A stretch of 64,000 nucleotides of DNA from an uncultured Bacteroidaceae bacterium (lineage in GTDB: Bacteria > Bacteroidota > Bacteroidia > Bacteroidales > GCA-2748055). A program made the position numbers and the translations under genes. Positions 1-17,843 of this stretch are shown piece by piece. Within the stretch, counting starts at the first letter, position 1. Each line of letters opens with the position of its first letter. The notes beneath the pieces were generated by a model. The model saw nothing but the letters and a program-made list of their open reading frames with translations, did not search any database and was not told where the DNA came from. Location: the NCBI GenBank assembly GCA_964572225.1, contig CAZNFR010000005.1, positions 1,383 through 65,382 of the forward strand, read 5' to 3'.

Positions 1-1
1 T

Positions 2-391
2 CAAAAGTTAAGAAAAGAGAACCGAAACTATATACTGATTGGTCCGGGAAGATGGGGGACGCAGGACCCTTTCATCGGAATACCCGTAAACTGGTCGCAG
101 ATTTCCGGGGCGAAGGTAATTGTCGAAACCAGCATGGAGGGTTTTCCATTGGATGCTTCCCTGGGTTCCCACTTCTTTCATAATGTGACCTCCATGAATG
201 TGGGTTATTTTTCCATTCAGCATAATTCCAGTGATGAGTTTATAGATTATAATGCACTGAAGGAACAAAAAGTGATTGAAGAAACGGGTTACGTCAGACA
301 TGTACGCTTTGATGAACCGGTTTGTGTGGTTATGGATGGGAAGAAACGAATCGCCATTATCCATAAATTCAGTTGCCGGAGTATTGAATAA
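2..391 (+). CDS. C-terminal fragment (5'-truncated by window) of a PEP-synthase/PPDK-like protein, paralogue of 402..3416
   Basis: Frame open from nt 2: QKLRKENRNYILIGPGRWGTQDPFIGIPVNWSQISGAKVIVETSMEGFPLDASLGSHFFHNVTS. It aligns with the C-terminus of the next ORF (KRNYVLIGPGRWGSSDPWLGIP...SQGTHFFQNLTS). Confidence 0.85.
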   Translation, partial: QKLRKENRNYILIGPGRWGTQDPFIGIPVNWSQISGAKVIVETSMEGFPLDASLGSHFFHNVTSMNVGYFSIQHNSSDEFIDYNALKEQKVIEETGYVRHVRFDEPVCVVMDGKKRIAIIHKFSCRSIE

Positions 392-401
392 TGAATGAAT
401 T

Positions 402-3400
402 ATGACAGATCCACTTCATACCCGTGATAATTTTTTTGATGCTCTTTCGGTTGATTTCAGTCTTACCGAATTCGGAGGATTGATGCAAAAAAGGATCAGA
501 AAGGTATTAATCATAAGCAGTAGTTACGATTTTTTCATGCTGGAAGAGGATGGCAGAATAGATGAACAGATCTTCAATGAGTATGTATCACTTAACCTGC
601 GTTACCCTCCGGTTTTTATAAAGGCAAGCACTGCAGCTGCAGCTTTGAGGATATTAAGCAAGGGAGATATCGATCTGATCATTGAGATGTTGAACATTGG
701 TGATGTTAATACATTTGAACTGGCCAAGGAGCTGAAAAAAGGGTACCCTGACACTCCCATTGTTGTTCTGACTCATTTTAACCGGGAAGTTTCTATGAAG
801 CTTCAGAATGAAGATCTGAGTGCGATTGACTATGTTTTTTGCTGGCTGGGGAATGCGGATCTTTTGCTTGCCATAATCAAGCTGATTGAGGATTCCATGA
901 ATGTGGACCACGATGTAAATGAAGTGGGGGTTCAGGCCATACTGCTCGTAGAAGATTCCATCCGATACACTTCGGTTTATCTTCCTCTGCTTTATAAGAT
1001 CGTGCTCAAACAATCCAGGGATTTCATGAAAGAAGCCCTTAATGAGCATCAAAAAATGTTGAGGATGCGGGGCAGACCCAAAATTCTGCTGGCAAAAACC
1101 TATGATGAGGCTGCTGCGCTTTTCCACAAGTACAAGAATAACCTCCTTGGGATCATTTCGGATGTGAGTTTTAAGGTCAATAACAAGCGGGATCATAAAG
1201 AAAAAATGGGGTTGAAATTATGCGAGCTGGTTAAGAGCGAGGATCCGAATATTCCGGTACTTTTGCAATCTTCAGACAAGAATAATAAGGAATATGCTGA
1301 TTCCTACGGGGCAGGTTTCATACATAAATACTCCAAAACCCTTTCACTTGAATTAAGGAATTTCATTATCCGGAATTTTGCTTTCGGTGAGTTTATTTTC
1401 AGGGATCCGGACACCGGGAGGGAGGTAGCACGCGCGAGCGATCTGCAGTCCCTTCAGCATCTCATTCTGAGGGTCCCCGAGAAAGTGCTTTCCTACCATG
1501 CATCCAAAAATGATTTCTCGAAATGGTTGAACGCCAGAGCCATTTTTCCGGTAGCCCAACTGTTCAAATACCTGAGAGAGGATGATTTCGAGAATATTTC
1601 GGAAGTGAGATCCTATATCTACGAAGCAATTTCATCCTTCAGGGTTAGTAAGGGGAGGGGGGTTATTGCCAAATTCGATAAGAACAGCTTTGATGAGTAT
1701 CTCGCATTTTCCAGAATTGGTGAGGGTTCCATTGGGGGGAAAGCCAGAGGTCTGGCTTTTATCAATCTTGTGATCAAGGAATACCGCTTATATAATAAAT
1801 TTAAGAACGCGATTATCACCATTCCACGGACCGTGGTGCTGAGTACCGATGTTTTTGATGAATTCATGGAGGTAAATGACCTGTATAAGGTGGGCTTGTC
1901 TGACCGGTCCGATGAGGAGATCCTTGATTCTTTTGTGAGGGCAAAACTGCCTGGCTGGGTTCACCAGGATCTTTATGCTTTTATTTCGGTTATCGAAAAT
2001 CCCATTGCAATTCGCTCCTCCAGCAAACTTGAGGACTCTCATTATCAACCATTTGCCGGTGTGTATTCGACCTATATGATCCCTAATGTGAAAACAGATC
2101 ATGCACTTACCATTCGAATGCTGACCAATGCAATCAAATCTGTTTACGCCTCTGTTTATTATAAGTCCAGCAAAGCATATATGACCGCTACATCCAATGT
2201 GATCGATGAAGAAAAAATGGGAATCATCCTTCAGGAGGTTTGTGGTTCAACTTATGGAGACCGGTTTTATCCTACTTTTTCCGGGGTTGCGAGGTCAATC
2301 AATTTTTATCCTGTAAAACCCGAGAAGCCCACAGACGGCATTGCCAACATTGCTTTCGGTCTGGGGAAGTACATTGTTGACGGGGGAATATCCTTACGAT
2401 TTTCTCCAAGATACCCGAAAAAAGTGCTGCAACTATCTTCTCCGGAAATGGTGATGAAGGATACACAGAAGTATTTTTATTCACTTGATCTTTCGAGTGA
2501 TAGTTTTAAAACTTCGGTGGATGATGCCGTAAACCTCTTCAAGCTCAGAATTGGTGAAGCTGAGAAAGACCATACACTAAAGCATGTGGCTTCTACTTTC
2601 GATTTTGAAAATAACATGATCAGGGATGGAATATGGGATAAGGGAAAAAGAGTCATTACCTTCTCCAATATCCTAAATCACGATGTTTTTCCCCTGGCTG
2701 AGATTTTAAGGACCTTGCTTGATATTGGGCAAAAGGAAATGAACCTTCCCATTGAAATTGAGTTTGCTGTAGAGATGAATGTTCCCAGGGATACCCCTCC
2801 TGTTTTTAATTTTCTTCAGATAAGGCCGATTGTGGACAATGATCAGACCATAAGCTATCATTTGAACAGCATAGATCCGGCAGATACCATACTTATTTCC
2901 GATTCCGGATTGGGCAATGGTATTTTTACTGGTATTCAAGATATTATTTACATCAATCCTGATAAGTTCGATGCTTCCGGAAACACCTTACTGGCAAATA
3001 AAATTGAACAATTAAATGATAAAATGAGGGAGGAGAAAAGAAATTATGTACTGATCGGGCCGGGACGATGGGGTTCCTCCGACCCATGGCTGGGTATTCC
3101 CATCAAATGGCAGCAGATAACCGAAGCTAGGATCATTGTAGAGTCCGGGCTCGACAATTACAGAATAGATCCAAGTCAGGGTACCCATTTTTTTCAAAAC
3201 CTGACCTCCTTCGGAGTAGGTTACATTACGGTTAATGCTTATAAAAAGGAAGGGTTTATCGATTTTAGCTGGCTTAACTCCATGCATGCGATTTTTGAAG
3301 AGGGAACGGTGCGGCATATTCGTTTTGAAAAGGAACTGGAAATTGTCATTAATGGTAAAACCAATAAGGCGGTCATTTTTAAGGAAGGAAAAGGACTGGA

Positions 3401-3416
3401 GAAAACGGAACCTTAA
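402..3416 (+). CDS. Receiver-domain / PPDK_N (ATP-grasp) 'PEP/pyruvate-binding domain' protein with C-terminal His-swivel-like domain
   Basis: 1004 aa. PEPS/PPDK nucleotide-binding motifs GSIGGKARGL, AIRSSSKLED..FAGVYST, ILQEV, SGVARS, FGLGKYIVDG, EIEFA, LQIRPI. Two N-terminal REC-like folds. No PEP-binding TIM barrel. Confidence 0.85.
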   Translation: MTDPLHTRDNFFDALSVDFSLTEFGGLMQKRIRKVLIISSSYDFFMLEEDGRIDEQIFNEYVSLNLRYPPVFIKASTAAAALRILSKGDIDLIIEMLNIGDVNTFELAKELKKGYPDTPIVVLTHFNREVSMKLQNEDLSAIDYVFCWLGNADLLLAIIKLIEDSMNVDHDVNEVGVQAILLVEDSIRYTSVYLPLLYKIVLKQSRDFMKEALNEHQKMLRMRGRPKILLAKTYDEAAALFHKYKNNLLGIISDVSFKVNNKRDHKEKMGLKLCELVKSEDPNIPVLLQSSDKNNKEYADSYGAGFIHKYSKTLSLELRNFIIRNFAFGEFIFRDPDTGREVARASDLQSLQHLILRVPEKVLSYHASKNDFSKWLNARAIFPVAQLFKYLREDDFENISEVRSYIYEAISSFRVSKGRGVIAKFDKNSFDEYLAFSRIGEGSIGGKARGLAFINLVIKEYRLYNKFKNAIITIPRTVVLSTDVFDEFMEVNDLYKVGLSDRSDEEILDSFVRAKLPGWVHQDLYAFISVIENPIAIRSSSKLEDSHYQPFAGVYSTYMIPNVKTDHALTIRMLTNAIKSVYASVYYKSSKAYMTATSNVIDEEKMGIILQEVCGSTYGDRFYPTFSGVARSINFYPVKPEKPTDGIANIAFGLGKYIVDGGISLRFSPRYPKKVLQLSSPEMVMKDTQKYFYSLDLSSDSFKTSVDDAVNLFKLRIGEAEKDHTLKHVASTFDFENNMIRDGIWDKGKRVITFSNILNHDVFPLAEILRTLLDIGQKEMNLPIEIEFAVEMNVPRDTPPVFNFLQIRPIVDNDQTISYHLNSIDPADTILISDSGLGNGIFTGIQDIIYINPDKFDASGNTLLANKIEQLNDKMREEKRNYVLIGPGRWGSSDPWLGIPIKWQQITEARIIVESGLDNYRIDPSQGTHFFQNLTSFGVGYITVNAYKKEGFIDFSWLNSMHAIFEEGTVRHIRFEKELEIVINGKTNKAVIFKEGKGLEKTEP

Positions 3417-3615
3417 TAAGTATAATACTCAGCAACATGGGGTTTCGGTATACCCTTAATTATCAAATTAATTATGATGAAAGTCATGTATTTAACATGC
3501 TTAAAATCATATAATTATAGAGGATAAAAATTTGGAAATCATGACTTTTAAAATCAAATTTACATACCAATAAAGAGGAATACTTACATAAAAACAACCA
3601 TTAAATTTCATCGCT

Positions 3616-4953
3616 ATGAATGTAGATCATATAATGAATGAGCTAATCAAGAAAACTCCCGGTGAAGCTGAGTATCACCAGGCTGTTCATGAAGTTCTTG
3701 AATCGATCGAAGAAATATACAACGATAATCCCCAATTTGAATCGGCCCAGATTATTGAACGATTAATTGAACCGGACCGGATCCTGATCTTCAAAGTTCC
3801 CTGGGAGGATGATGAAGGAAAGATCCATGTGAATCGTGGATTTCGGGTTCAGTTTAATAATGCGATCGGTCCTTACAAGGGTGGATTGCGATTTCACCCC
3901 AGTGTGAATCTCAGCATCCTGAAATTCCTGGGGTTTGAACAGATTTTCAAAAACAGTCTCACTTCCCTGCCCATGGGTGGAGCCAAGGGTGGATCCGATT
4001 TTGATCCCAAAGGGAAATCGAATCGTGAGATTATGCGCTTTTGCCAGTCGTTTATGCTTGAATTATGGCACCTTATCGGCCCTGATACCGATGTTCCGGC
4101 AGGGGATATTGGGGTTGGAGGCCGTGAGGTAGGTTATCTGTATGGGATGTACCGTAAGCTTGCCAGAGAGAATTCCGGAGTTATTACCGGAAAGGGACTG
4201 AATTGGGGCGGATCTTTGATCAGGCCTGAAGCTACGGGGTTTGGAGTCGTATACTTTGCTCAGGAAATGCTAAAAACTGCCGGTGAAACTTTCAAGGATA
4301 AGAAAGTGGCCATTTCGGGTTTTGGCAATGTTGCCTGGGGTGCAGCCCTAAAAGTCACCGAGCTGGGAGGAAAGGTAATTACCCTTTCTGGTCCTGATGG
4401 TTATATTCATGATCCTGAAGGAGTTAGCGGTGAAAAAATCAATTATATGCTGGAGCTCAGGGCCACCAATGAGGATATCGTAAAGCCCTATTCCTATGAG
4501 TTTGAAGGGGTTGAGTTTGTACAGGGCAAGCACCCCTGGGAAGTTCCCTGTGATATTGCTCTTCCCTGTGCCACCCAGAATGAGTTAAACAAGGAGGATG
4601 CTGAAAATCTGGTGAAAAATGGCTGTCTTTGTGTAACCGAAGGTGCCAATATGCCCTGCACACCTGAAGCTATTGAGGTATTGCATGATAACCGGATCCT
4701 TTATGCTCCGGGTAAGGCATCCAACGCGGGAGGAGTTGCAACCTCGGGTCTTGAGATGGCTCAGAATTCCATGAAGATTAACTGGAGCAGAGAAGAAGTG
4801 GATGGCAGACTTCATCATATTATGTCAAACATTCATGAGAACTGCGTCAGGTACGGCAAGAAAGAAGACGGATATGTTGATTATGTAAAAGGTGCAAATA
4901 TTGCCGGTTTTCTGAAGGTTGCCAATTCAATGCTTGACCAGGGAATGTTCTGA
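3616..4953 (+). CDS. gdhA: Glutamate dehydrogenase (NADP-specific GdhA type)
   Basis: 445 aa. GPYKGGLRFHP, LPMGGAKGGSDFDPKG, DVPAGDIGVG, RPEATGFG, SGFGNVAW, KASNAGGVATSGLEM. Confidence 0.97.
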   Translation: MNVDHIMNELIKKTPGEAEYHQAVHEVLESIEEIYNDNPQFESAQIIERLIEPDRILIFKVPWEDDEGKIHVNRGFRVQFNNAIGPYKGGLRFHPSVNLSILKFLGFEQIFKNSLTSLPMGGAKGGSDFDPKGKSNREIMRFCQSFMLELWHLIGPDTDVPAGDIGVGGREVGYLYGMYRKLARENSGVITGKGLNWGGSLIRPEATGFGVVYFAQEMLKTAGETFKDKKVAISGFGNVAWGAALKVTELGGKVITLSGPDGYIHDPEGVSGEKINYMLELRATNEDIVKPYSYEFEGVEFVQGKHPWEVPCDIALPCATQNELNKEDAENLVKNGCLCVTEGANMPCTPEAIEVLHDNRILYAPGKASNAGGVATSGLEMAQNSMKINWSREEVDGRLHHIMSNIHENCVRYGKKEDGYVDYVKGANIAGFLKVANSMLDQGMF

Positions 4954-4959
4954 TGAGGA

Positions 4960-6264
4960 TCAGGAGATAAACTGGCTGAGGTATTTCCTGAATTCCTGGT
5001 AATCGTTTGGAAGGGCTGTTGATTTTTTTTCCCTTGTCAGGTATTGCCTGAGTTGTTCCGGGAGATTTATTTCGGTTCCGGTAACTTCTTCCACGCTCTC
5101 CCGGAATTTTGCAGGATGTGCGGTTTCCAGAAAGATTATCTCGCTGTCCGGATGGTCTTTCCGATATTCCATCCCGGCCAGATAAGCTGTTGCTCCATGT
5201 GGATCAGGAAGGTAGCCTGTTTTTTCAATACACGCGGCAATTCCTTTTCGAATCTCATCATCAGCGTAAGAATAACCTGAGATCATCCGGCTCATTTCTT
5301 TATGTGAATGACCGAAAATTTCCAGCATTCTCTCAAAATTGGAAGGGTTACCCACATCCATGGCATTGGCAATGGTTGCAAGGGAGGGGCGGGGAGTAAA
5401 CTTTCCCTTTAGAAGGTATTCGGGAATAACATCGTTGATATTGGTTGAAGCAATAAAATGATCCACCGGAAGACCCATTTTCCATGCAATCAATCCTGCG
5501 GTAATATTTCCGAAATTGCCACTTGGAACGCTGAAAACCAGTTTTTTGTCTTTATTCTTTCTTTGTCTGAAAGCATTAAAATAATAAAAGGACTGTGGTA
5601 AAAGCCTGGCGAGGTTAATGGAATTGGCAGAGGTCAGATACAACTCGGTTTTTAATTCAGGATCGGAAAAAGCCTGTTTTACCAGATTCTGGCAATCATC
5701 AAATGTTCCTTCGATCTCGATCGCTTGGATATTCTGACCGAGGGTGGTAAACTGCTTTTCCTGGATCTCGCTAACCAGTCCTTTAGGGTAAAGAACATGT
5801 ACGCTTATCCCATCCACTCGGTAAAAGCCGTTAGCCACAGCACCACCGGTATCGCCCGATGTAGCTACCAGAACATGCACCTCTCCATTCACATCCGGGG
5901 TGAGGGCAGCGAGCATTCTTGCCATAAACCGGGCTCCGACATCTTTAAATGCAAGTGTGGGACCATGGAATAGTTCAAGACTGTAAAATCCCTCATCGAT
6001 CTCTACCAGTGGTACCGGGAAATTAAGTGCCTCCTTTACCAGAGGTTCAAGGGTACCCCCGGGTAGATCCTCCTCAAAGAATAATCCGGCCAACACGGTC
6101 GATAGTTCTTCAAAACTAAGTTTATCCTGTTCATCCATAAAAGAATCCGGAATTAAAGGGATCACCTCCGGCATATAGAGTCCCTTGCCCGGGGCCAGGC
6201 TGCGGGTTACTGCTTCGGTTAGATCTACCCGGTAATTTCGGTCTGCTGTGCTGTAATAATTCAC
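4960..6264 (-). CDS. thrC: Threonine synthase
   Basis: 434 aa. ELFHGPTLAFKDVG (PLP Lys), VATSGDTG, SANSINLARL, SVPSGNFGN, ETAHPAKF. Confidence 0.96.
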   Translation of the reverse strand: MNYYSTADRNYRVDLTEAVTRSLAPGKGLYMPEVIPLIPDSFMDEQDKLSFEELSTVLAGLFFEEDLPGGTLEPLVKEALNFPVPLVEIDEGFYSLELFHGPTLAFKDVGARFMARMLAALTPDVNGEVHVLVATSGDTGGAVANGFYRVDGISVHVLYPKGLVSEIQEKQFTTLGQNIQAIEIEGTFDDCQNLVKQAFSDPELKTELYLTSANSINLARLLPQSFYYFNAFRQRKNKDKKLVFSVPSGNFGNITAGLIAWKMGLPVDHFIASTNINDVIPEYLLKGKFTPRPSLATIANAMDVGNPSNFERMLEIFGHSHKEMSRMISGYSYADDEIRKGIAACIEKTGYLPDPHGATAYLAGMEYRKDHPDSEIIFLETAHPAKFRESVEEVTGTEINLPEQLRQYLTREKKSTALPNDYQEFRKYLSQFIS

Positions 6265-6274
6265 CTTATCAATT

Positions 6275-7201
6275 TTAGGTTAGGATTCTTGTCCCTGAGT
6301 TTGAGATCCGGGAGACGTAAGTATGGTTAGGAATATTGAGGTCTGTATAGTGACTGCTCATGTGCTCTGCGATGATCCGGGCATCTTCCGCAGAACCTGA
6401 CAGGGCAAATACCGATGGGCCGGAACCGGAAATATTTACTGCTCTGTAGCCAAATGAACGTAGTTTTTTCTTGAGATCCCTGTATCCTGGGATCATTTCT
6501 GCTCTTACAGGCTCTGCAATCCGATCTTCAACTGAACTTTCAATCCGGTTAAAATCTGATTGAAGAAATCCCGTAACCAGAGAAGCAAGATTTCCCGCCT
6601 GCACAAGGGCGTCTTTCACGGAGATTTTTTCCGGAATCAGCTTCCTGCTTTCTTTAGTTTGAATTTCTATTTGGGGATGAACAAGGGTACAATACAGCTT
6701 TTCAGGAGCATTTAGTCTGATTATATCGAATGGATCATAACTTCGGATCAAAACGATATTCCCAAGCAGTGCAGGAGCGATATTATCAGCATGGGTACTG
6801 CCACTTGCAATAAACTCACCGGCAAGTGCACAGGGGATTAATTCCATGGGACTCAATCCGCCACTCAACAGGATATTCACTCCAAAGACCGCTGCGGCAC
6901 AACTGGCGGCACTTGAGCCTATACCTGATCCGGGATTGATTTTTTCACGAAAAATTAGATCAAATCCCTGTTTGGATCCAAGCTCTTTCAAAAGGGCACT
7001 TACGGCCACCGCAGCCACATTCAGTTCCGGATTTTCAGGTAGACTGACCCCGGACTTATTCACAATGCGAAGCTTGGATTCCTGATTCGGTTTAATTTCC
7101 AGTATATCGCCAGGCTCATCGAGGGCAAATCCCATAAGGTCAAATCCTGGGCCTATATTGGAAACGGTTGCCGGTGCGTATATGGTAACTGATTTAAGCA
7201 T
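6275..7201 (-). CDS. thrB: Homoserine kinase (GHMP family)
   Basis: APATVSNIGPGFD, PGSGIGSSAAS, HADNIAP, ISGSGPS. Lies between thrA and thrC. Confidence 0.93.
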   Translation of the reverse strand: MLKSVTIYAPATVSNIGPGFDLMGFALDEPGDILEIKPNQESKLRIVNKSGVSLPENPELNVAAVAVSALLKELGSKQGFDLIFREKINPGSGIGSSAASCAAAVFGVNILLSGGLSPMELIPCALAGEFIASGSTHADNIAPALLGNIVLIRSYDPFDIIRLNAPEKLYCTLVHPQIEIQTKESRKLIPEKISVKDALVQAGNLASLVTGFLQSDFNRIESSVEDRIAEPVRAEMIPGYRDLKKKLRSFGYRAVNISGSGPSVFALSGSAEDARIIAEHMSSHYTDLNIPNHTYVSRISNSGTRILT

Positions 7202-7203
7202 AC

Positions 7204-7875
7204 TTATCTTTGGTTGTTCAGGAACAGGTTCAATTGTTCATTCCCAAACTGAGTTAGACTGGAAAGTTTCATATTGGCAATCCCGTAACCAGGCAGATCT
7301 TTATGGGCAGGATCCGGTACCGCTACTACTTTCATGGTAGCGGCTCTGGCTGCAATAACTCCGTTAAGGGAGTCCTCAAAGGCCAGGCACCGGGAAGGAT
7401 GAACACTCAAAATGCTGGCGGTGGTTATATAGACCGCCGGGTGGGGCTTACCATATTCCTCTGTTTCTGCTGTGTTTAGTAATGAAAAAAAGGATCTGAG
7501 ATTAAACCGGTCGACAAAAGTTTCAATAAGTTCCATGGAAGAGGAGGATGCGAGTGCCATATTTAACCCCGTATTCCTGAAGAAATCAAGGATGTATTCG
7601 GCTCCGGGCATAAGTTCGGCTTCCTCGAGAAAGAACTTCAGAATTTTTTGGTTGTATATTCTTTCAATTTTTTTGAAATCTGGATTTGGCCAGGGCCTGT
7701 GGTGGTACCAGTAATGGATCTGTTCATCGGTCCTCATCCCAAAAGTTGCCTGTTGCATTTCTTCATCTATCTCCATTTCAAGAAGACCAGAAAAGATCTC
7801 TCTTTCCGTTTTCTGCCAGTAGGGCTCGGTATTGATGAGAAGACCGTCCATATCAAAAATCACTGCCTTGATCAT
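7204..7875 (-). CDS. HAD-superfamily phosphatase (YniC/HxpB, beta-PGM-like subfamily)
   Basis: IFDMDGLL motif I, ALASSS motif II, GKPHP motif III, FEDSLNG motif IV. Start taken at MIKAV (7875) rather than the ORF-track start 7899, which overlaps thrA. Confidence 0.88.
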   Translation of the reverse strand: MIKAVIFDMDGLLINTEPYWQKTEREIFSGLLEMEIDEEMQQATFGMRTDEQIHYWYHHRPWPNPDFKKIERIYNQKILKFFLEEAELMPGAEYILDFFRNTGLNMALASSSSMELIETFVDRFNLRSFFSLLNTAETEEYGKPHPAVYITTASILSVHPSRCLAFEDSLNGVIAARAATMKVVAVPDPAHKDLPGYGIANMKLSSLTQFGNEQLNLFLNNQR

Positions 7876-7885
7876 TTTCCTTGTT

Positions 7886-10312
7886 TTACACGTTGGCAAT
7901 TCGAATTATATCCGCAAAGATGCCTGCTGCGGTTACTGCGGCGCCTGCTCCGTATCCGCGGATCACCATGGGTTCTTCGCGATATCGTTCCGTTGTAATC
8001 AGCACAATATTATTGCTGGCAGCAAGCTCATACGCCGGATGAGCCGGATCTACCTCTAAAAGCTCTACTTTGCCCTTCCCTTCGCTAAGGCTTGCAACGA
8101 ACCTCCATCTTTTTTGTTTCTTTTCCAGAACCTTTCTTTTTTCTTCAAATTCTTCATCCAGCAGCCGGATCTCTTTCCAAAAATTATCCTGGTCGCCCGA
8201 GAAACATTTTTCCGGCAGGAAAGATTTCATTTCAACATCCTCCTCTTCCATTTTATAACCGGACTCCCTGGAAAGTATCAGGAGCTTTCGCATAACATCC
8301 TTGCCACTCAGGTCAATTCTCGGATCCGGTTCGGAAAAACCATTTTCTTTGGCCAGTTCAACAGCCCTGCTGAGTTTTATTTCGCCTGAAAGGGTATTAA
8401 ATATGAAGTTGAGAGTACCAGATAGAACTGCATCAAGCGCCAGGATCCTGTCACCGCTCCGGATCAGGTCATTGATGGTATTGATAATTGGAAGACCTGC
8501 ACCGGCATTGGTCTCGAAGCTGAACTTGACACCTTTTTTGCGGGATTTCATTTTAAGTTCATGGTAAAGGCTGTAAGACGAAGAGCAGGCGATCTTATTT
8601 GCAGTCACTACAGAGACATACTGATCAAACAATCTTCCATAAAAGGAGGATACATACTCACTGGCTGTACAATCGATAAAGACCTGGTTCCTGAGATTGA
8701 GTCTTTTCATTTCGGCCAGAAATTTCTCCAGATCCGCCTTTTCACCCTGGTCGAGGACGGCCTGATAATTGTCGAGGTCTATTCCTTCCTCGTCCAAAAG
8801 CATTTTCCGGGAATTAGTGATCCCAATTATCTTAATGTTAAGGTTATGATCCCTCATCAAATGTGAGGATTGTTGTTTGATCTGGGCAATGAGGTCCTTT
8901 CCGACAGTTCCTGTTCCTGCCAGGTAAAGGTGAAGGTCTTTGTAATGGGAAAGGAAGAATCCTTCATGGATCACATTCAGTGATTTTCTCAACTGTTCTT
9001 GTTGGATCACCACAGAGATATTTCTTTCAGATGATCCTTGTGCAGTTGCAATAACCGAAATACCGTTCCTTCCCAGGGAGATGAACAGATTTGCTGATAT
9101 TCCGGGGGTATTTCTCATTTTTTCCCCGACTATGGCAATTATGGAGAGGGCCCTTTCAACCTCAAGGTCAATTATATTTTTGATCTCCAGTTCTATGCTG
9201 AACTCTTCACGAATGGCCTTAACTGCTTTTTCGGTATCGGAAGGATCGATGGCAAAACTTATGGAGTATTCTGAGGATGCCTGTGTGATCAGAATAATAT
9301 TCACTTCCCTGGAGGCAAGGGCAGAAAAAAGCCGCATGGAAATTCCTGTGACCCCGGGGAGACCACTTCCCTGGAGAGTGATCAGATCTATGTTGTCAAT
9401 GGAAGAGATTCCCTTAATGGGACTTTCTGAAAAATTCTCGCCCGACTGGCTGATCAGAGTTCCTTTTGCAGCCGGATTGAAGGTATTCCGTATGGTGATC
9501 GGAATATTCTTTTTGTAAGCGGGATGGAGAGTGGGTGTATAGAGAACTTTGGCACCGAAGTGAGATAACTCGAGAGCTTCGGAATAGCTGAGGCTGCTGA
9601 TCACATAGGCTTTGCTTACCATACGCGGATCGGCCGTCATGAATCCATCTACATCTGTCCAGATTTCCAGTGCCTCCGCATTCAGGGCTGCAGCAATAAT
9701 GGCTGCTGTATAATCAGATCCCCCACGACCCAGTGTGGTGATCTGCCCTTTTTCGTTTGATGCGATGAATCCGGGAATTACCGCTATGGATTCCAGGTTT
9801 CTCAGAGATTCCCTGATTGAAGTGTTTGTCAGCCCGAAATTCACGTTGGCTTTGCCGTGAGTATTGTCCGTTTTTATGAAATTCCTTGCATCTATGCATC
9901 TGGCGGAGGAGAAAGAATTGCTTATAATGAAGGAAGAAAGTCTTTCACCAAAACTAAGCAGGTGGTCCTGTGTTTTTAGGGCGAGGTCCCTTACAAGGTA
10001 CACCCCGTAAAGCAGATCTTCCATTTCATCGAAGAGGGTGTTAATATGATTAATACAGGCCTCTTTTTTTTCAGGGATCAGAAGTTCTTCCACGGCTTCG
10101 AGGTGCCTTTTCCTCATTTTGAAAAGATCGTCTTTATACTCTTCCCTGCCCTCGGAGGCATTCCGGCTCATTTCAATGATCTGATCGGTTACCCCTCTGA
10201 AAGCGGAGACCACAACGACTATGGGGCCTGATTGCTCCTCAACAATTTTGATTACATTTCTGATGCTGGAAGGGGAGCCAACCGAGGAACCGCCGAATTT
10301 TAAAACTTTCAT
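7886..10312 (-). CDS. thrA: Bifunctional aspartokinase/homoserine dehydrogenase
   Basis: 808 aa. MKVLKFGGSSVG, LGRGGSDYTA, WTDVDG, two ACT regions, GTGTVG, VTANK, FETNAGAGLP, GYGAGAAVTA. Confidence 0.96.
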   Translation of the reverse strand: MKVLKFGGSSVGSPSSIRNVIKIVEEQSGPIVVVVSAFRGVTDQIIEMSRNASEGREEYKDDLFKMRKRHLEAVEELLIPEKKEACINHINTLFDEMEDLLYGVYLVRDLALKTQDHLLSFGERLSSFIISNSFSSARCIDARNFIKTDNTHGKANVNFGLTNTSIRESLRNLESIAVIPGFIASNEKGQITTLGRGGSDYTAAIIAAALNAEALEIWTDVDGFMTADPRMVSKAYVISSLSYSEALELSHFGAKVLYTPTLHPAYKKNIPITIRNTFNPAAKGTLISQSGENFSESPIKGISSIDNIDLITLQGSGLPGVTGISMRLFSALASREVNIILITQASSEYSISFAIDPSDTEKAVKAIREEFSIELEIKNIIDLEVERALSIIAIVGEKMRNTPGISANLFISLGRNGISVIATAQGSSERNISVVIQQEQLRKSLNVIHEGFFLSHYKDLHLYLAGTGTVGKDLIAQIKQQSSHLMRDHNLNIKIIGITNSRKMLLDEEGIDLDNYQAVLDQGEKADLEKFLAEMKRLNLRNQVFIDCTASEYVSSFYGRLFDQYVSVVTANKIACSSSYSLYHELKMKSRKKGVKFSFETNAGAGLPIINTINDLIRSGDRILALDAVLSGTLNFIFNTLSGEIKLSRAVELAKENGFSEPDPRIDLSGKDVMRKLLILSRESGYKMEEEDVEMKSFLPEKCFSGDQDNFWKEIRLLDEEFEEKRKVLEKKQKRWRFVASLSEGKGKVELLEVDPAHPAYELAASNNIVLITTERYREEPMVIRGYGAGAAVTAAGIFADIIRIANV

Positions 10313-14180: not shown

Positions 14181-15142
14181 TAGTAATTACTGGAGCAGCC
14201 GGATTTATAGGATCCAATATGGTTAGCAGACTTAATGAGGAAGGATATAAGGACCTTATTCTTGTAGATGATTTCAGCAGGAATGAAAAAGAAAAGAATT
14301 TTCGGAATAAGACCTTCGCTTCCCTGATTAAACGAATGGATTTTCCCCATTGGCTCAGGGAAAATCAACGTCAGATCGAATTTGTGTTTCACCTGGGTGC
14401 CAGGACAGATACCACCGAACCGCGCAGGGAGATCTTTAACGAACTGAATTTGGATTACTCAAAAACAGTCTGGAAAATCTGCACCGAATTTGGGATCCCA
14501 CTGGTTTATGCTTCTTCTGCCGCAACCTACGGTGAAGGAGAATTGGGATATAAGGATGATCACGATATTATTCCGGTTCTTAAGCCTCTCAATGAGTACG
14601 GGCGCTCCAAGAATGAATTTGATAAATGGGTACTTAAACAGGAAAAATTTCCCTTTTTCTGGGCAGGTCTTAAATTCTTCAATGTTTATGGCCCGAATGA
14701 GTACCATAAAGGCCGGATGGCGTCGGTTGTTTTTCATGCATTCAATCAGATCCGTGAGAAAGGGGAAATGAATTTGTTCCGCTCCCATAATGAACAATAT
14801 AAGGACGGGGAACAGTTGCGCGATTTCATTTATGTTAAGGACGTAATTGATGTGATGTTTTGGATGATGGAAACCCGGAAAAATCCGGGGATCTATAATC
14901 TCGGAACCGGAAAGGCACGTACGTTTCTGGATCTGGTCAGTGGGGTCTTCCAAGCTATGGACAGAAAGCCTGTTATTCATTTTATCGATACCCCGGAAGA
15001 CATCCGGGATAAGTACCAGTACTTTACCGAGGCGACCATGGGAAAACTCAAAACGGCTGGGTATCCAGGTGAGTTTACGACTCTCGAAAGAGGGGTGGAG
15101 GACTATGTTCAAAACTATCTGTTGGCAGGTTCTTATAATTGA
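14177..15142 (+). CDS. hldD: ADP-L-glycero-D-manno-heptose 6-epimerase
   Basis: MIVITGAAGFIGSN, YASSAATYG, PLNEYGRSK, FFNVYGPNEYHKGRMASV, RDFIYVKD. ATGA overlap with mqnD. Confidence 0.93.
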   Translation: MIVITGAAGFIGSNMVSRLNEEGYKDLILVDDFSRNEKEKNFRNKTFASLIKRMDFPHWLRENQRQIEFVFHLGARTDTTEPRREIFNELNLDYSKTVWKICTEFGIPLVYASSAATYGEGELGYKDDHDIIPVLKPLNEYGRSKNEFDKWVLKQEKFPFFWAGLKFFNVYGPNEYHKGRMASVVFHAFNQIREKGEMNLFRSHNEQYKDGEQLRDFIYVKDVIDVMFWMMETRKNPGIYNLGTGKARTFLDLVSGVFQAMDRKPVIHFIDTPEDIRDKYQYFTEATMGKLKTAGYPGEFTTLERGVEDYVQNYLLAGSYN

Positions 15143-15220
15143 AATATCTTTACAGGATAAGTTGGTTTCAAGAAAAAAATCAACCAGACTGTTTACTAAC
15201 ACACCATTGCTTCCTACGGG

Positions 15221-17026
15221 ATGAAAACAGAACTTGCACGTAGCCTGAACAACTTCCTTTCTTTGTTGATCGTTGCCGGGATTTTTTATTTCCTTATTCC
15301 GCTTGTTTCTTTAGTATTGCTATTGCCCGGGGCCCTTCTACTCTTGTCGGCTCTTGATTACCGGACTCAAAATCGTAAACCCGATTATCTTTTCGGACTG
15401 GAAACAGGGAACGAATTTCTGAGCCGAAAGGGAGGCATATGGTTATTACTAAAATACCCGGTTATTTTTCTTGGGCTGGTTTTTGATCTTGTAATCTGGA
15501 TACTTAATGGGGTTTTGGTCCTTTTTCGTTTCTTTACCGATGCATTGTTACTGGTAAGAGAAGTTCTTTTCTGGGTTTTTCATGCCGTGATCTGGTTTCT
15601 GGGTCTGTTTGTTCCACCCTTGGTAATTGTATTCAGGAGCTTCATTCATTATTTTTTAAGATGGCCCTGGTGGATTTACCGTTGTACTTTCCATAACACA
15701 AAGCTTGCCTTTTACTGGCTTTTCCTCAGGATCGCTTTCAGGGGAGCTTTCCTTGCCTTGTTCATCCTTTTGATTTTTTATGGAACGGCAGTGATTATTG
15801 AAGTTTACCCTCTGATCTATGTCGGGTTGGCCTTTGCTCTGCTTCCCCTTACCTGGGCATATACCGAAATCGGCGCTCTTCGCCAGAGAGACAACCAGAT
15901 TACCTCCTACAAGCGGGTAAGAAAACTTTTTTCCAGAGGGATGGAATCTGTCAGAGCTGTCCTTTTTTATCTTTCTTCCCTGGTGGTATTGCTTGTGCTT
16001 CAGATTTTACTTTACATGCTGGGATGGATACCCGACGTGGGATTCAGTCTGCTGGGGATTAGCCTGAACATAGGAACGCTTATCAGTATTGTAATTCTAT
16101 TTATGGCAGTTATACTGCTATTTTCCAAGTTTCTTATTCCTCCCTATATTTTGCAGGACCGAAAGCATGAGAACAATCTTTCCTCCTCCCTTTATTTCCT
16201 TGGAATCATCGGTAGGAAATTCCTACGATACCTTTTTGCCCATGTTCCTGCTCTGGTTTTTGGTGTTTTCCTTATGCTTCTCCCTGCAATTATTATGATT
16301 ACCGCCGGATGGATCAGCATCAATATAAAAAATACCGTTCTGGATACCCGTATCAACTCCATGGTCCAAAAGGAGAAGAAGGCTGAAGGGATTGAAGCAT
16401 ACCGGATAGGGGCCAGAACCGACCAATTGAGATACTATAGAGAATATCCTTTCAATTTTATTTCCGGTTTCAGAGGAATTAAGGAGGAAATGAAACGAAA
16501 TCAGTGGTTATCTGCCAATATTGATTCATCCCTAGAGAATATCAGAAGATCCGAAAGGATGTTCAATCAGGATGTTGACTCCCTGAAAAATGAAATCTCC
16601 CTTTTAGAGGCCAAAACCGATTCCATAAGCAAGATAAGAGCCGACCTGAGGAAACAAAACCTGCAACAAAAGATTGAAGAATTCAACATTTGGAAATTAT
16701 CGAGACAACAGGATATTTTCAGAGAGACTGCCCGGTTGGAAAGTTCCAAAAATCTGGTAAAACAACTGCCCCTGGTATTTCTTTTCTCGGCTATTTGGGC
16801 TTCGCTGCTTGGGGGACTCATCCTGGCGGTTTTCATCTCCTATCTTGGGAATCTCTATTTTGAGCTTTATTCTCTGGGGGAGGACAGTAAACCCACTTAC
16901 CTTAGACAATTATTCCATAAATTCAGAGAAAAGGATAGGAATCAGCCCTTACTTGGATTTACCCTGCTTTTCATCCTGTTAACAGGGATGGGGATTGCCT
17001 GGTTTTTCCTTTACTTATCGAACTGA
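15221..17026 (+). CDS. Hypothetical polytopic membrane protein with a soluble coiled-coil-like insert
   Basis: 601-aa ORF with many hydrophobic segments and a charged helical region (~aa 370-515). No family recognised. Confidence 0.75.
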   Translation: MKTELARSLNNFLSLLIVAGIFYFLIPLVSLVLLLPGALLLLSALDYRTQNRKPDYLFGLETGNEFLSRKGGIWLLLKYPVIFLGLVFDLVIWILNGVLVLFRFFTDALLLVREVLFWVFHAVIWFLGLFVPPLVIVFRSFIHYFLRWPWWIYRCTFHNTKLAFYWLFLRIAFRGAFLALFILLIFYGTAVIIEVYPLIYVGLAFALLPLTWAYTEIGALRQRDNQITSYKRVRKLFSRGMESVRAVLFYLSSLVVLLVLQILLYMLGWIPDVGFSLLGISLNIGTLISIVILFMAVILLFSKFLIPPYILQDRKHENNLSSSLYFLGIIGRKFLRYLFAHVPALVFGVFLMLLPAIIMITAGWISINIKNTVLDTRINSMVQKEKKAEGIEAYRIGARTDQLRYYREYPFNFISGFRGIKEEMKRNQWLSANIDSSLENIRRSERMFNQDVDSLKNEISLLEAKTDSISKIRADLRKQNLQQKIEEFNIWKLSRQQDIFRETARLESSKNLVKQLPLVFLFSAIWASLLGGLILAVFISYLGNLYFELYSLGEDSKPTYLRQLFHKFREKDRNQPLLGFTLLFILLTGMGIAWFFLYLSN

Positions 17027-17226
17027 TCATGCAATTTATTGAGATCACGCACAAAAGCACTGATTTCATCCTCATCAAATCCTTTTTCCCTTGCTGCTTC
17101 TTCGAGGGTTCCCCAAACCGGTTCACCACAGGCAATGCATTTAATCCCTTTTTCTGAAAGGTATTTTACGGCTGCTGGCAATGTGGTTACCAGGTCATCA
17201 ATGCTTGTTTCTTTCCTTATAATCAT
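17011..17226 (-). CDS. DUF1858-like small protein (CxxC)
   Basis: 71 aa. IRKETSIDDLV..LPAAVKYL...GIKCIACGEPVWGTLEEAAREKG. A TAATTTTG box lies upstream. Confidence 0.8.
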   Translation of the reverse strand: MIIRKETSIDDLVTTLPAAVKYLSEKGIKCIACGEPVWGTLEEAAREKGFDEDEISAFVRDLNKLHDQFDK

Positions 17227-17248
17227 ATCCCTTGTTTTTAAAGTTCCG

Positions 17249-17256
17249 CAAAATTA
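17249..17256 (-). promoter_or_regulatory. -7 element for the DUF1858-like gene
   Basis: TAATTTTG on the minus strand. Confidence 0.55.
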
Positions 17257-17288
17257 ATAATTTCCGGAGATTAAAAATCCCGATCGCC

Positions 17289-17843
17289 ATGCATAGAAAG
17301 AAAGCTTTGGATCTCTTACACCAATATATCCAATCGGATAAAATGATCAGTCATTGCCTCAGCTCGGAAGCCGTTTTGCGTGCAGCAGCCAGAGAGCTCA
17401 ACGAAGATGAGAATAAGTACGGATTAGCCGGATTGCTGCATGATCTGGATGTTGAGATCACCGCCGGAGAACCGGAAAAACACGGACATAAAACCTTAGA
17501 GATCCTCAGGAAAGAAGGACTGGATGAAGAGATCCTTGAAGCCATCGTGCTTCACAATGAAATGAACGGGTCGGGGGAGAGGACCTCCAGGTTTCATCAT
17601 GTCCTGGCTGCAGGTGAAACCATTACCGGGTTGATATTTGCAACTACCCTTGTTTATCCCGAGAAAAAGATTGAAAACGTAAAGTATAAGTCTATCCGGA
17701 AGCGAATGAAGGAAAAGGCTTTTGCAGCTTCGGTTGATCGCGACATTATTATGGAATGCGAAAAGGCGGGAATCCCCCTTGATGATTTTATCCGGATCTC
17801 CGTGGATGCCATGAAAGAAATATCTGATGATATAGGTCTGTGA
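17289..17843 (+). CDS. HD/HDIG-domain metal-dependent hydrolase
   Basis: MISHCLSSEA, AGLLHDLD, AIVLHN, KEKAFAASVDR. Start taken at MHRKK (17289). Confidence 0.85.
   Translation: MHRKKALDLLHQYIQSDKMISHCLSSEAVLRAAARELNEDENKYGLAGLLHDLDVEITAGEPEKHGHKTLEILRKEGLDEEILEAIVLHNEMNGSGERTSRFHHVLAAGETITGLIFATTLVYPEKKIENVKYKSIRKRMKEKAFAASVDRDIIMECEKAGIPLDDFIRISVDAMKEISDDIGL

Follow-up and report, generated by a model that had tools for sequence, protein, structure and literature searches.

Paralogous ATP-grasp proteins encoded beside glutamate dehydrogenase genes in Bacteroidales and other bacteria: a conserved family that probably controls or serves the enzyme

The Bacteroidales, an order dominant in the gut and in many anaerobic habitats, assimilate ammonium mainly through glutamate dehydrogenase (GDH), and the Bacteroides enzyme is reported in older biochemical work to be rapidly and reversibly inactivated. 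To our knowledge, the switching of GDH activity in this order is not understood. Two established systems offer functional analogies: GlnE/GlnD, by which a central nitrogen-assimilation enzyme is subjected to signal-controlled covalent modification (glutamine synthetase/PII), and PknG-GarA/OdhI of the Actinobacteria, a Ser/Thr kinase and an FHA protein dedicated to post-translational signalling on enzymes of the 2-oxoglutarate/glutamate node (GDH, 2-oxoglutarate dehydrogenase). With respect to domain content, enzymes with a PPDK_N-type ATP-grasp domain have to be considered. As far as we know, all characterised ones act on non-protein substrates, namely PEP synthase, PPDK, rifampin phosphotransferase (RPH), glucan water dikinase and PigC/RedH. 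RPH lacks the PEP/pyruvate TIM barrel, possesses a swivel His domain of the classical type as well as a domain for rifampin binding, is associated with antibiotic resistance and is widely mis-annotated as PEP synthase. Finally, the tandem-receiver protein PleD contains a first receiver that is phosphorylated and a second, degenerate one serving as adaptor, both ahead of an enzymatic GGDEF output domain.

The window analysed here (64,000 nucleotides of an uncultured Bacteroidaceae bacterium) begins with two genes of a family that combines several of these elements. An open reading frame at positions 2..391 of the forward strand, open at its 5' end, encodes the C-terminal 129 aa of paralogue A, a part of its His domain with the motifs GPGRWG and LGSH(57)FFHN (His codon at nt 170-172). 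Its stop at 391 is separated by 10 nt from the start of paralogue B (402..3416, + strand, 1004 aa), and gdhA (3616..4953, + strand, 445 aa) follows on the same strand. An earlier note had described this arrangement and the position of the His codon correctly, and its suggestion that the two genes are paralogues was verified by an identity of 38-39% across about 970 aa. The gene of paralogue A runs across an assembly break: it starts on another contig of the genome, C25, whose end shares 96 nt, with a single synonymous mismatch, with the start of contig C5, and the rejoined protein has approximately 1159 aa. Upstream of A, C25 contains korA (614 aa) and korB (342 aa), the latter ending 78 nt before A. 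The alpha subunit scored 641 bits with TIGR03710 (cut-off 483) and the beta subunit, which is of the TPP-binding PorB/KorB type, 235 bits with TIGR02177, which is under the cut-off of 262; together they make up a two-subunit 2-oxoacid:acceptor (ferredoxin) oxidoreductase (korAB) that is presumably specific for 2-oxoglutarate. The gdhA product is a family-I hexameric-type GDH (PF02812, ELFV_dehydrog_N, 173 bits; PF00208, ELFV_dehydrog, 303 bits; NF010633, 810 bits at a cut-off of 743) and also passed the NADP-specific model NF006929 (719 bits, cut-off 536). A second GDH of the genome (C17:2286-3626), 62% identical to gdhA, is flanked by a TatD-like gene and an asparaginase gene, and no family member lies near it. 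In the 199-nt spacer between B and gdhA (3417..3615, no strand assigned, 25% G+C) neither a terminator nor a perfect Bacteroidetes -7 box (TAnnTTTG) was predicted, positions 1-6500 gave no Rfam matches at E values up to 1, and promoter and terminator scans performed no better than on shuffled sequence.

All domains of B are encoded on the + strand. The protein starts with a pseudo-receiver (REC1, residues 33-175, 498..926) that has the (beta-alpha)5 fold but is degenerate: at the phospho-acceptor position 95, B-type proteins have E/S/T and A-type proteins L/I/V, and an invariant Trp148 stands in place of the conserved Lys. The adjacent REC2 (residues 178-326, 933..1379), in which a helical insert follows beta1, contains the acidic pair, Asp, Ser/Thr and Lys of a genuine receiver; E184/D185, D254 (codon 1161-1163), S290 and K309 showed no or almost no variation among 81 sequences of the A and B types, and the fold was confirmed by AF2 and Foldseek. 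A beta-hairpin and helical linker (residues 330-420, 1389..1661), whose equivalent in A weakly matched DUF5752, leads to the PPDK_N-type ATP-grasp domain (residues 443-817, 1728..2852). Its motifs for the binding of nucleotide and metal do not vary (GGK447xR449, R538-SSS-xx-E544-D545, E604-K605, Q611, E785/E787 and Q806), and with PPDK_N (PF01326) B reached 123 bits and A 131 bits. The AF2 model of B (pLDDT 81.7) had RPH (PDB 5hv1, E 1e-11, 434 columns), PleD and PPDK (1dik) as top Foldseek matches. Paralogue A carries in addition an N-terminal module of about 190 aa with the motifs KELACIN, AWQYPE and EGPFLKEE, for which neither a PDB profile search nor scans of 46 members with Pfam returned a significant match; a GAF-like nature is unsupported.

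The same catalytic residues are kept in A and B. The proposal that the two proteins are opposing kinase/phosphatase-like regulators was therefore rejected. Conservation also bears on the possibility that A and B are non-catalytic partners, i.e. scaffolds, assembly or chaperone-like factors or allosteric binders of GDH or KorAB in which ATP binding only senses the energy charge. The invariance of the ATP-grasp catalytic and metal-binding residues and of the His motif points to catalysis rather than to binding alone. A 1996 title on trans-acting gene(s) affecting GdhA activity (Baggio & Morrison), cited in the reference list of PMC4539542, could be quoted in favour of such a partner; it could not be linked to the family, none of the B. 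thetaiotaomicron genes of checked function being a member. We thus regard a purely non-catalytic role as highly improbable.

The ATP-grasp domain is followed by a C-terminal domain of roughly 180 aa (B residues 826-995, 2877..3386), with which the protein stops. In 149 diverse representatives of 50%-identity clusters R889, G891, G898, S925, G927 and H929 (codon 3186-3188) were invariant, His929 being part of the context G-R-W-G and S-x-G-[ST]-H-F-F-x-N. Although the domain was modelled well (pLDDT 87.9), Foldseek did not disclose a match in the PDB (best E 0.02, TM 0.3 or less). The idea that it is a swivel domain was abandoned, as the Foldseek search was negative and hhalign against the swivel domain of the genome's own PPDK gave a probability of 0.3%. 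Hence, equating the conserved His with the classical dikinase His is unsupported at the fold or profile level, and a phospho-carrier role of His929 would rest on analogy only. A site for catalysis or ligand binding would likewise agree with the many invariant polar residues of the domain.

In databases, members of the family are named 'phosphoenolpyruvate synthase' or 'PEP/pyruvate-binding domain-containing protein'. These names would suggest ordinary PEP synthases, next to gdhA by inherited synteny without meaning. B scored only 49 bits with the PEP synthase equivalog NF004881 (cut-off 883) and 25 bits with TIGR01418 (cut-off 740), and it matched neither the swivel domain (PF00391, GGxTSHAA) in Pfam nor the PEP/pyruvate-binding TIM barrel (PF02896); both domains are missing from A as well. 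The term 'dikinase-like' therefore holds for the ATP-grasp part of the proteins and not for the remainder. Domain content has already refuted the PEP synthase reading, to which we give practically no credence: A and B are not PEP synthases; the family to which they belong is large and uncharacterised, and its members are ATP-using proteins under signal control. With PpsA/PPDK they share the nucleotide-binding domain and its conserved motifs. RPH resembles them in the combination of a PPDK_N-type ATP-grasp domain with the lack of the TIM barrel, but A and B have the unmatched C-terminal domain in place of the swivel, two receivers before the ATP-grasp domain and no identified equivalent of the rifampin-binding domain, and their genes are tied to GDH and korAB. 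Compared to PleD, the order of the phosphorylatable and the adaptor receiver is reversed, and the output is the ATP-grasp and His-domain core. A description of the family was not found in a literature search of incomplete coverage.

The earlier note had proposed surveying gene neighbourhoods for a co-occurrence with gdh, and the outcome was clearly positive. Members of the family occur in 224 of the 251 sampled genomes of the order (about 90%). Among close relatives, gdhA started within 500 nt in 14/62 loci and lay within 10 kb in 21/45, while korB was located directly upstream in 45/62. Throughout the Bacteroidales, gdhA was the immediate neighbour of a family member in 33 of 88 loci and in 24 of 61 GTDB families, at a chance expectation of about 0.1%; since the 100 sampled loci were the highest-scoring matches to the B protein of the window, the resulting 37% may overstate the order-wide rate. 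The gene was found downstream on the same strand (28 cases) or upstream and divergent (7 cases), korB was adjacent in 15/88 loci, and neither of the two was nearby in 49/88. Within four genes on either side, the 100 loci contained gdhA 44 times, an A-type paralogue 30 times and korA and korB 17 and 16 times, respectively; as an internal control, every other neighbour recurred in at most 8 loci. Recurrent metabolic neighbours included, besides korAB, a NuoE/NuoF/GltD-FdhA-like oxidoreductase and serC/serA. Two different GDH paralogue types take part in the adjacency. Mapped onto the tree of B, it requires a minimum of 19 state changes and thus has been gained or lost many times. The varied gdhA arrangements and these state changes, together with the two GDH clades and the other phyla described below, also argue against meaningless synteny. 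A presumed location of the B. thetaiotaomicron pair between BT1970 and BT1973 turned out to be wrong, BT1971 being a catalase and BT1969 a malic enzyme.

Outside the close relatives, GDH adjoined the family in six of the seven cases examined, including Ignavibacteria- and Aminicenantes-type contigs, and was situated directly beside a member in L184/185, L186-188, L191, L192 and L193. The GDH of these distant loci belongs to a different clade and is only 33% identical to that of the window. Hence the adjacency is far above chance in several lineages and arrangements, and in the clade of the window it extends to korAB. In the Ignavibacteria- and Aminicenantes-type lineages the two units are fused or provided with a nucleotidyltransferase domain. 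They are accompanied by a metallophosphoesterase gene, which is co-oriented with the family in the Aminicenantes-type loci. Natural fusions of 1620-1655 aa unite a B-like core and an A-like unit, which lends support to the earlier suggestion that the pair acts together, possibly as a heterodimer; in a single protein of this kind, a B-like core is combined with the N-terminal module of A, a further core and a nucleotidyltransferase. The nucleotidyltransferase domain (NTP_transf_2/Pol-beta) occurs only in far relatives (P0155, P0271-P0286 and the 1060-aa proteins of L186, L188, L191 and L192) and is absent from A and B of the window. The Pol-beta-type domain in far relatives of A and the neighbouring phosphoesterase gene are reminiscent of GlnE/GlnD, although this is a functional analogy with no sequence relationship for the proteins of the window, and the presumed target would be GDH instead of glutamine synthetase. 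In these other phyla the plausible eraser is the separate metallophosphoesterase.

Some members do not possess a receiver at all, for example a protein of 773 aa in L193, the nucleotidyltransferase forms of 1060 aa and the first unit of a 1631-aa fusion. The constant part of the family is a two-domain core of ATP-grasp and C-terminal domain, to which receivers, the A N-terminal module and the nucleotidyltransferase are lineage-variable additions. This affects the idea of a self-contained phosphorelay, in which the ATP-grasp domain charges His929 and the phosphoryl group moves on to Asp254 of the protein's own or its partner's REC2, so that a dikinase-derived substitute of a histidine kinase would control gene expression or partner binding. 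The retention of all REC2 phospho-acceptor residues in both paralogues, the invariant His929 and the lack of a histidine kinase gene as conserved neighbour in the 100 Bacteroidales loci would agree with it. As cores exist in close functional relatives without a receiver, however, charging the own receiver cannot be the core function of the family, and the relay would have no output domain. We consider it quite improbable.

Thus, the functional link of the family to the 2-oxoglutarate/glutamate node is strong, and its position beside GDH genes in many bacterial lineages indicates that it probably controls or serves GDH. The explanation we tentatively prefer is that the paralogues A and B are ATP-grasp enzymes gated by signals, that they probably cooperate, and that they form a conserved module serving this node. 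The mechanism is probably an ATP-driven covalent control of GDH. The core would load a phosphoryl group from ATP onto His929 and pass it to a target, most likely GDH itself and possibly KorAB, whose activity would be switched with the nitrogen, carbon or redox status. Asp254 of REC2 would take input from a kinase, the N-terminal module of A would sense a ligand, and both proteins would act as a hetero-oligomer. Such a module would be comparable to PknG-GarA/OdhI in function, while the receiver-gated ATP-grasp proteins belong to entirely different families.

The evidence does not single out GDH, and the substrate may also be KorAB or a small molecule. In the latter case the core would be a dikinase or ligase phosphorylating or activating a metabolite of the 2-oxoglutarate/glutamate/redox node, with receivers that only tune it and a GDH adjacency reflecting a shared pathway. 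This would conform to the substrates of the characterised PPDK_N enzymes, to the partial NCBIfam matches of B (PEP synthase and PigC/RedH) and RPH as best structural match, to the many invariant polar residues in the C-terminal domain, as expected of an active site, and to the recurrent metabolic neighbours. On the other hand, there is no obvious substrate-binding domain besides the C-terminal one, the linkage tracks GDH across two GDH clades and not a whole pathway, and the paired units, sensor modules, nucleotidyltransferase fusion and dedicated phosphoesterase resemble a regulatory set of writer and eraser. A small-molecule enzyme is for these reasons unlikely in our opinion. The most far-reaching version of the preferred explanation is possible, if somewhat doubtful as a whole. 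It states that the family constitutes an unrecognised, multi-phylum post-translational control of GDH and possibly of 2-oxoglutarate:ferredoxin oxidoreductase. The PPDK-type ATP-grasp domain would charge the invariant His, located in a new domain of carrier or catalytic function, and A and B together would place a covalent mark on the enzyme, with inputs through the two-component receivers of A and B and the ligand-sensing N-terminal module of A; in other phyla the fused nucleotidyltransferase would add a second kind of mark and the metallophosphoesterase would be the eraser.

If this is true, A and B would be the first case of dikinase-fold enzymes with a protein as substrate. Should the direct target be something other than GDH, a widespread annotation error is still corrected, a new kind of response-regulator output is recognised and a new domain, conserved and carrying an invariant His, is defined. 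Its presence in about 90% of the sampled Bacteroidales genomes, its high conservation, its mis-annotation as PEP synthase and its tie to GDH across phyla make the family a candidate for the missing control of GDH that is concrete and can be tested.

The open reading frames of the window bore out every position that the earlier note had assigned to two paralogous "PEP synthase"-labelled genes, A and B, in front of gdhA. The 3' part of A (positions 2 to 391, + strand, as gdhA) is open at its 5' end and codes for 129 amino acids with the motifs GPGRWG and LGSHFFHN, in which the conserved histidine is residue 57 (codon 170-172). B (402 to 3416, same strand) begins 10 bases past the stop codon of A and encodes a protein of 1004 aa. 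A spacer of 199 nt with a G+C content of 25% separates it from gdhA (3616 to 4953, same strand; 445 aa), whose product passed the curated glutamate dehydrogenase (GDH) model NF010633 (810 bits versus a cut-off of 743) as well as the NADP-specific model NF006929 (719 versus 536). Within the spacer, neither a terminator nor a perfect Bacteroidetes -7 box was predicted; scanning from korA to gdhA for promoters disclosed a perfect TAnnTTTG box upstream of korA only. Positions 4960-10312 (- strand), convergent with gdhA, contain the threonine biosynthesis genes thrC, thrB and thrA, with a gene for a HAD-type hydrolase between thrB and thrA. In close relatives thrC is often found downstream of the locus too, which is probably plain local synteny.

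The beginning of A was recovered from another contig of the source genome, C25, as an assembly break splits the gene. The last 96 nt of C25 are the first 96 nt of contig C5, of which the window covers 1383-65382, except for one synonymous base (AAT/AAC), a mismatch probably due to strain heterogeneity within the MAG. Across this junction the frames of A join over 32 shared residues, giving a protein of about 1159 aa, and the two contigs should be joined. A starts 78 nt past korB (342 aa), which is preceded by korA (614 aa); the two genes encode a two-subunit 2-oxoacid:acceptor oxidoreductase (TIGR03710, 641 bits versus a cut-off of 483). Thus, the gene order at the rejoined locus is murI, LbH protein, korA, korB, A, B, gdhA. 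The genes for glutamate racemase (murI) and the LbH/gamma-carbonic-anhydrase-like protein (C25:37756-39147 and eight order-wide loci) recur immediately 5' of korAB wherever korAB precedes the A/B pair.

The earlier note had suggested that the pair controls GDH and that gdh should recur beside its homologues. A survey of gene neighbourhoods agreed with the latter: 33 of 88 loci of the order, from 24 families, had gdhA as an immediate neighbour. For this sample, the surroundings (about 20 kb) of 100 B-type genes were inspected, 88 of which had at least 2 kb on each side (61 GTDB families); since these 100 had been picked for scoring best against the window's B, the adjacency of 37% may exceed the true order-wide rate. 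By chance, direct adjacency would be expected in about 0.1% of cases (with two of roughly 3000 genes encoding GDH). gdhA lay downstream on the same strand in 28 loci, upstream and divergent in seven and on both sides in two, and it was within 8.4 kb in 40 of the 88. korB was directly upstream in 15 and an A-type partner present in 21, while 49 loci had neither gdhA nor korB adjacent. As an internal control, all genes up to four places away from B were clustered for the 100 loci. gdhA occurred in 44, the A-type paralogue in 30 and korA and korB in 17 and 16, respectively; no other recurrent neighbour within this distance was found in more than eight. Among 80 loci of close relatives, all of them Bacteroidales MAGs whose B is 62-77% identical to that of the window, an A-type gene was located immediately 5' of B in 62 of 74. 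For gaps of up to 500 nt, korB preceded the first gene in 45 of 62 cases and gdhA followed downstream in 14 of 62; with the range widened to 10 kb, a gdhA was present in 21 of 45. The family was detected in 224 of 251 genomes and 166 of 184 genera of the order. Among cultured species, Acetobacteroides hydrogenigenes very probably shares the B-gdhA arrangement; its protein WP_131837708.1 falls into one 90% cluster with the protein of locus L178.

Mapped onto a tree built from 89 B proteins, gdhA adjacency required at least 19 state changes, compared to 27-30 in the five label shuffles listed; inheritance accounts for part of it, yet gains or losses were numerous. GDHs encoded downstream are of the same type as the window's gdhA (median identity 77%), and the upstream-divergent ones, always beside an A-type gene, belong to a second paralogue group (61-64%). 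The source genome also has a GDH of the second type (C17:2286-3626, - strand; 62% identical to gdhA), which is unlinked to the family and flanked by TatD-like and asparaginase genes; its orthologues elsewhere are divergent from and adjoining an A-type gene. Genes for NuoE-like, NuoF-like and approximately 1230-aa GltD/FdhA-like proteins lie beside the family in five to seven Bacteroidales loci (among them L138, L146 and L162), and the same set was seen in two distant contigs (L190:1-5382, L193:328-6209). With these oxidoreductases, the module may have a third redox partner (NAD(P)H/ferredoxin).

A and B share 38-39% identity across about 970 residues. Pfam recognised a receiver and PPDK_N in B, and PPDK_N in A. 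The architecture was derived from an alignment of 81 A- and B-type sequences with column counts and an AlphaFold2 model of B (pLDDT 81.7). Residues 33-175 of B adopt a receiver fold (REC1). This domain is a pseudo-receiver, because at its phospho-acceptor position B-type proteins have E/S/T and A-type proteins L/I/V, and an invariant tryptophan substitutes for the conserved lysine. The second receiver, REC2 (178-326), retains E184, D254, S290 and K309 invariantly in both types and is apparently functional in each paralogue. It is followed by a helical linker (330-420), an ATP-grasp domain (about 436-817), all of whose nucleotide and metal motifs are invariant, and a C-terminal domain (826-995) with invariant G-P-G-R-W-G and S-x-G-[ST]-H929-F-F-x-N. 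A, and not B, is extended at its N-terminus by a module of about 190 aa; its motifs are strongly conserved, and Pfam and PDB searches revealed no relative of it. Several B-type matches (e.g., in genomes G067, G132, G055 and G058) exhibited one or two in-frame stops (TAA, TGA or TAG).

The public names of the family range from 'phosphoenolpyruvate synthase' and 'PEP/pyruvate-binding domain-containing protein' to 'response regulator' and even 'histidine kinase'. Full-text literature searches, whose coverage leaves out many subscription papers, yielded no description of it. A and B are not PEP synthases: B scored 49 bits on the PEP synthase equivalog with a cut-off of 883, and Pfam found in it neither a PEP-utiliser mobile domain nor a PEP/pyruvate-binding domain. 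Foldseek with the full model of B gave rifampin phosphotransferase as top match (E 1e-11), followed by tandem-receiver PleD structures and PPDK. The C-terminal domain modelled alone (135-sequence alignment, pLDDT 87.9, pTM 0.88) had no PDB match better than E 0.02, with TM values of at most 0.3, and hhalign against the swivel domain of the genome's own PPDK (GGMTSHAA) returned a probability of 0.3%. Hence, the His domain is not recognisably a swivel domain and, on present evidence, its predicted structure would represent a new fold.

Among 1.84 billion cluster representatives, searched exhaustively with HMMER, 1673 proteins carried this domain. It directly followed PPDK_N in all eight matches scanned by Pfam and was at the C-terminal end of the other full-length (about 1000-aa) proteins among the matches listed. 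In 149 diverse representatives R889, G891, G898, S925, G927 and H929 were conserved to 100%, and E914, W890, F930 and F931 to at least 98%. Judged by sequence, His929 is clearly predicted to be essential; by analogy, it may act as a phosphoryl carrier.

Starting from the distant matches of this search, seven contig look-ups were made, and only that of L190 revealed no GDH within 8 kb. One subfamily, one member of which is named Ignavibacteriae, consists of fusion proteins of 1620-1655 aa composed of a B-like core (ATP-grasp and C-terminal domain), the A N-terminal module, a second core and a Pol-beta-type nucleotidyltransferase. Because A-like and B-like units are fused here, this Rosetta-stone evidence suggests that they act together. 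On L184 and L185 a 430-aa GDH precedes the fusion protein by 81 nt, and a metallophosphoesterase gene follows the latter; divergent from the GDH preceding the 1631-aa fusion is a gene for a TPR and HATPase_c protein (L184:4493-6310 and L185:322-2139, both - strand). Aminicenantes-type contigs (L186-188, L191, L192) contain a string of a GAF-HD gene, a receiver-type member of 970-1001 aa and a metallophosphoesterase gene. Converging on it are a 428-aa GDH and, directly after, a 1060-aa protein made up of the A N-terminal module, a core and a nucleotidyltransferase. The HD-GYP-like GAF-HD gene directly 5' of the receiver-type member (L186:6785-8014, L188:6628-7842, L191:6754-7983, L192:6720-7934) hints at a link to cyclic-nucleotide signalling. 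On L193 two GDHs flank a 997-aa member and, after it, one of 773 aa that lacks receivers; 3' of the second GDH (14902-17649) are serC-like and serA-like genes and a gene for a Macro-domain protein; the Macro domain is a fold binding or hydrolysing ADP-ribose. Since the GDHs of L184 and L186 share only 33% identity with that encoded by the window's gdhA, the association follows enzyme function and not one gene lineage. The existence of receiver-less forms indicates that the core is the functional unit and the receivers are optional regulators. It also disfavours a purely internal His-to-Asp relay.

Taken together, the A/B pair is usually adjacent and sometimes fused, its linkage to GDH is strong and repeated, and korAB is linked to it in the window's clade. 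As the best, still tentative explanation, ATP would be used to load His929 with a phosphoryl group, which would be transferred to GDH and possibly KorAB, gated by signals entering through REC2 and the A N-terminal module. In other phyla the nucleotidyltransferase might be a second writer and the metallophosphoesterase an eraser. The main rival is a small-molecule dikinase working in the same metabolic corner. That the family is functionally tied to the 2-oxoglutarate/glutamate node is very probable.
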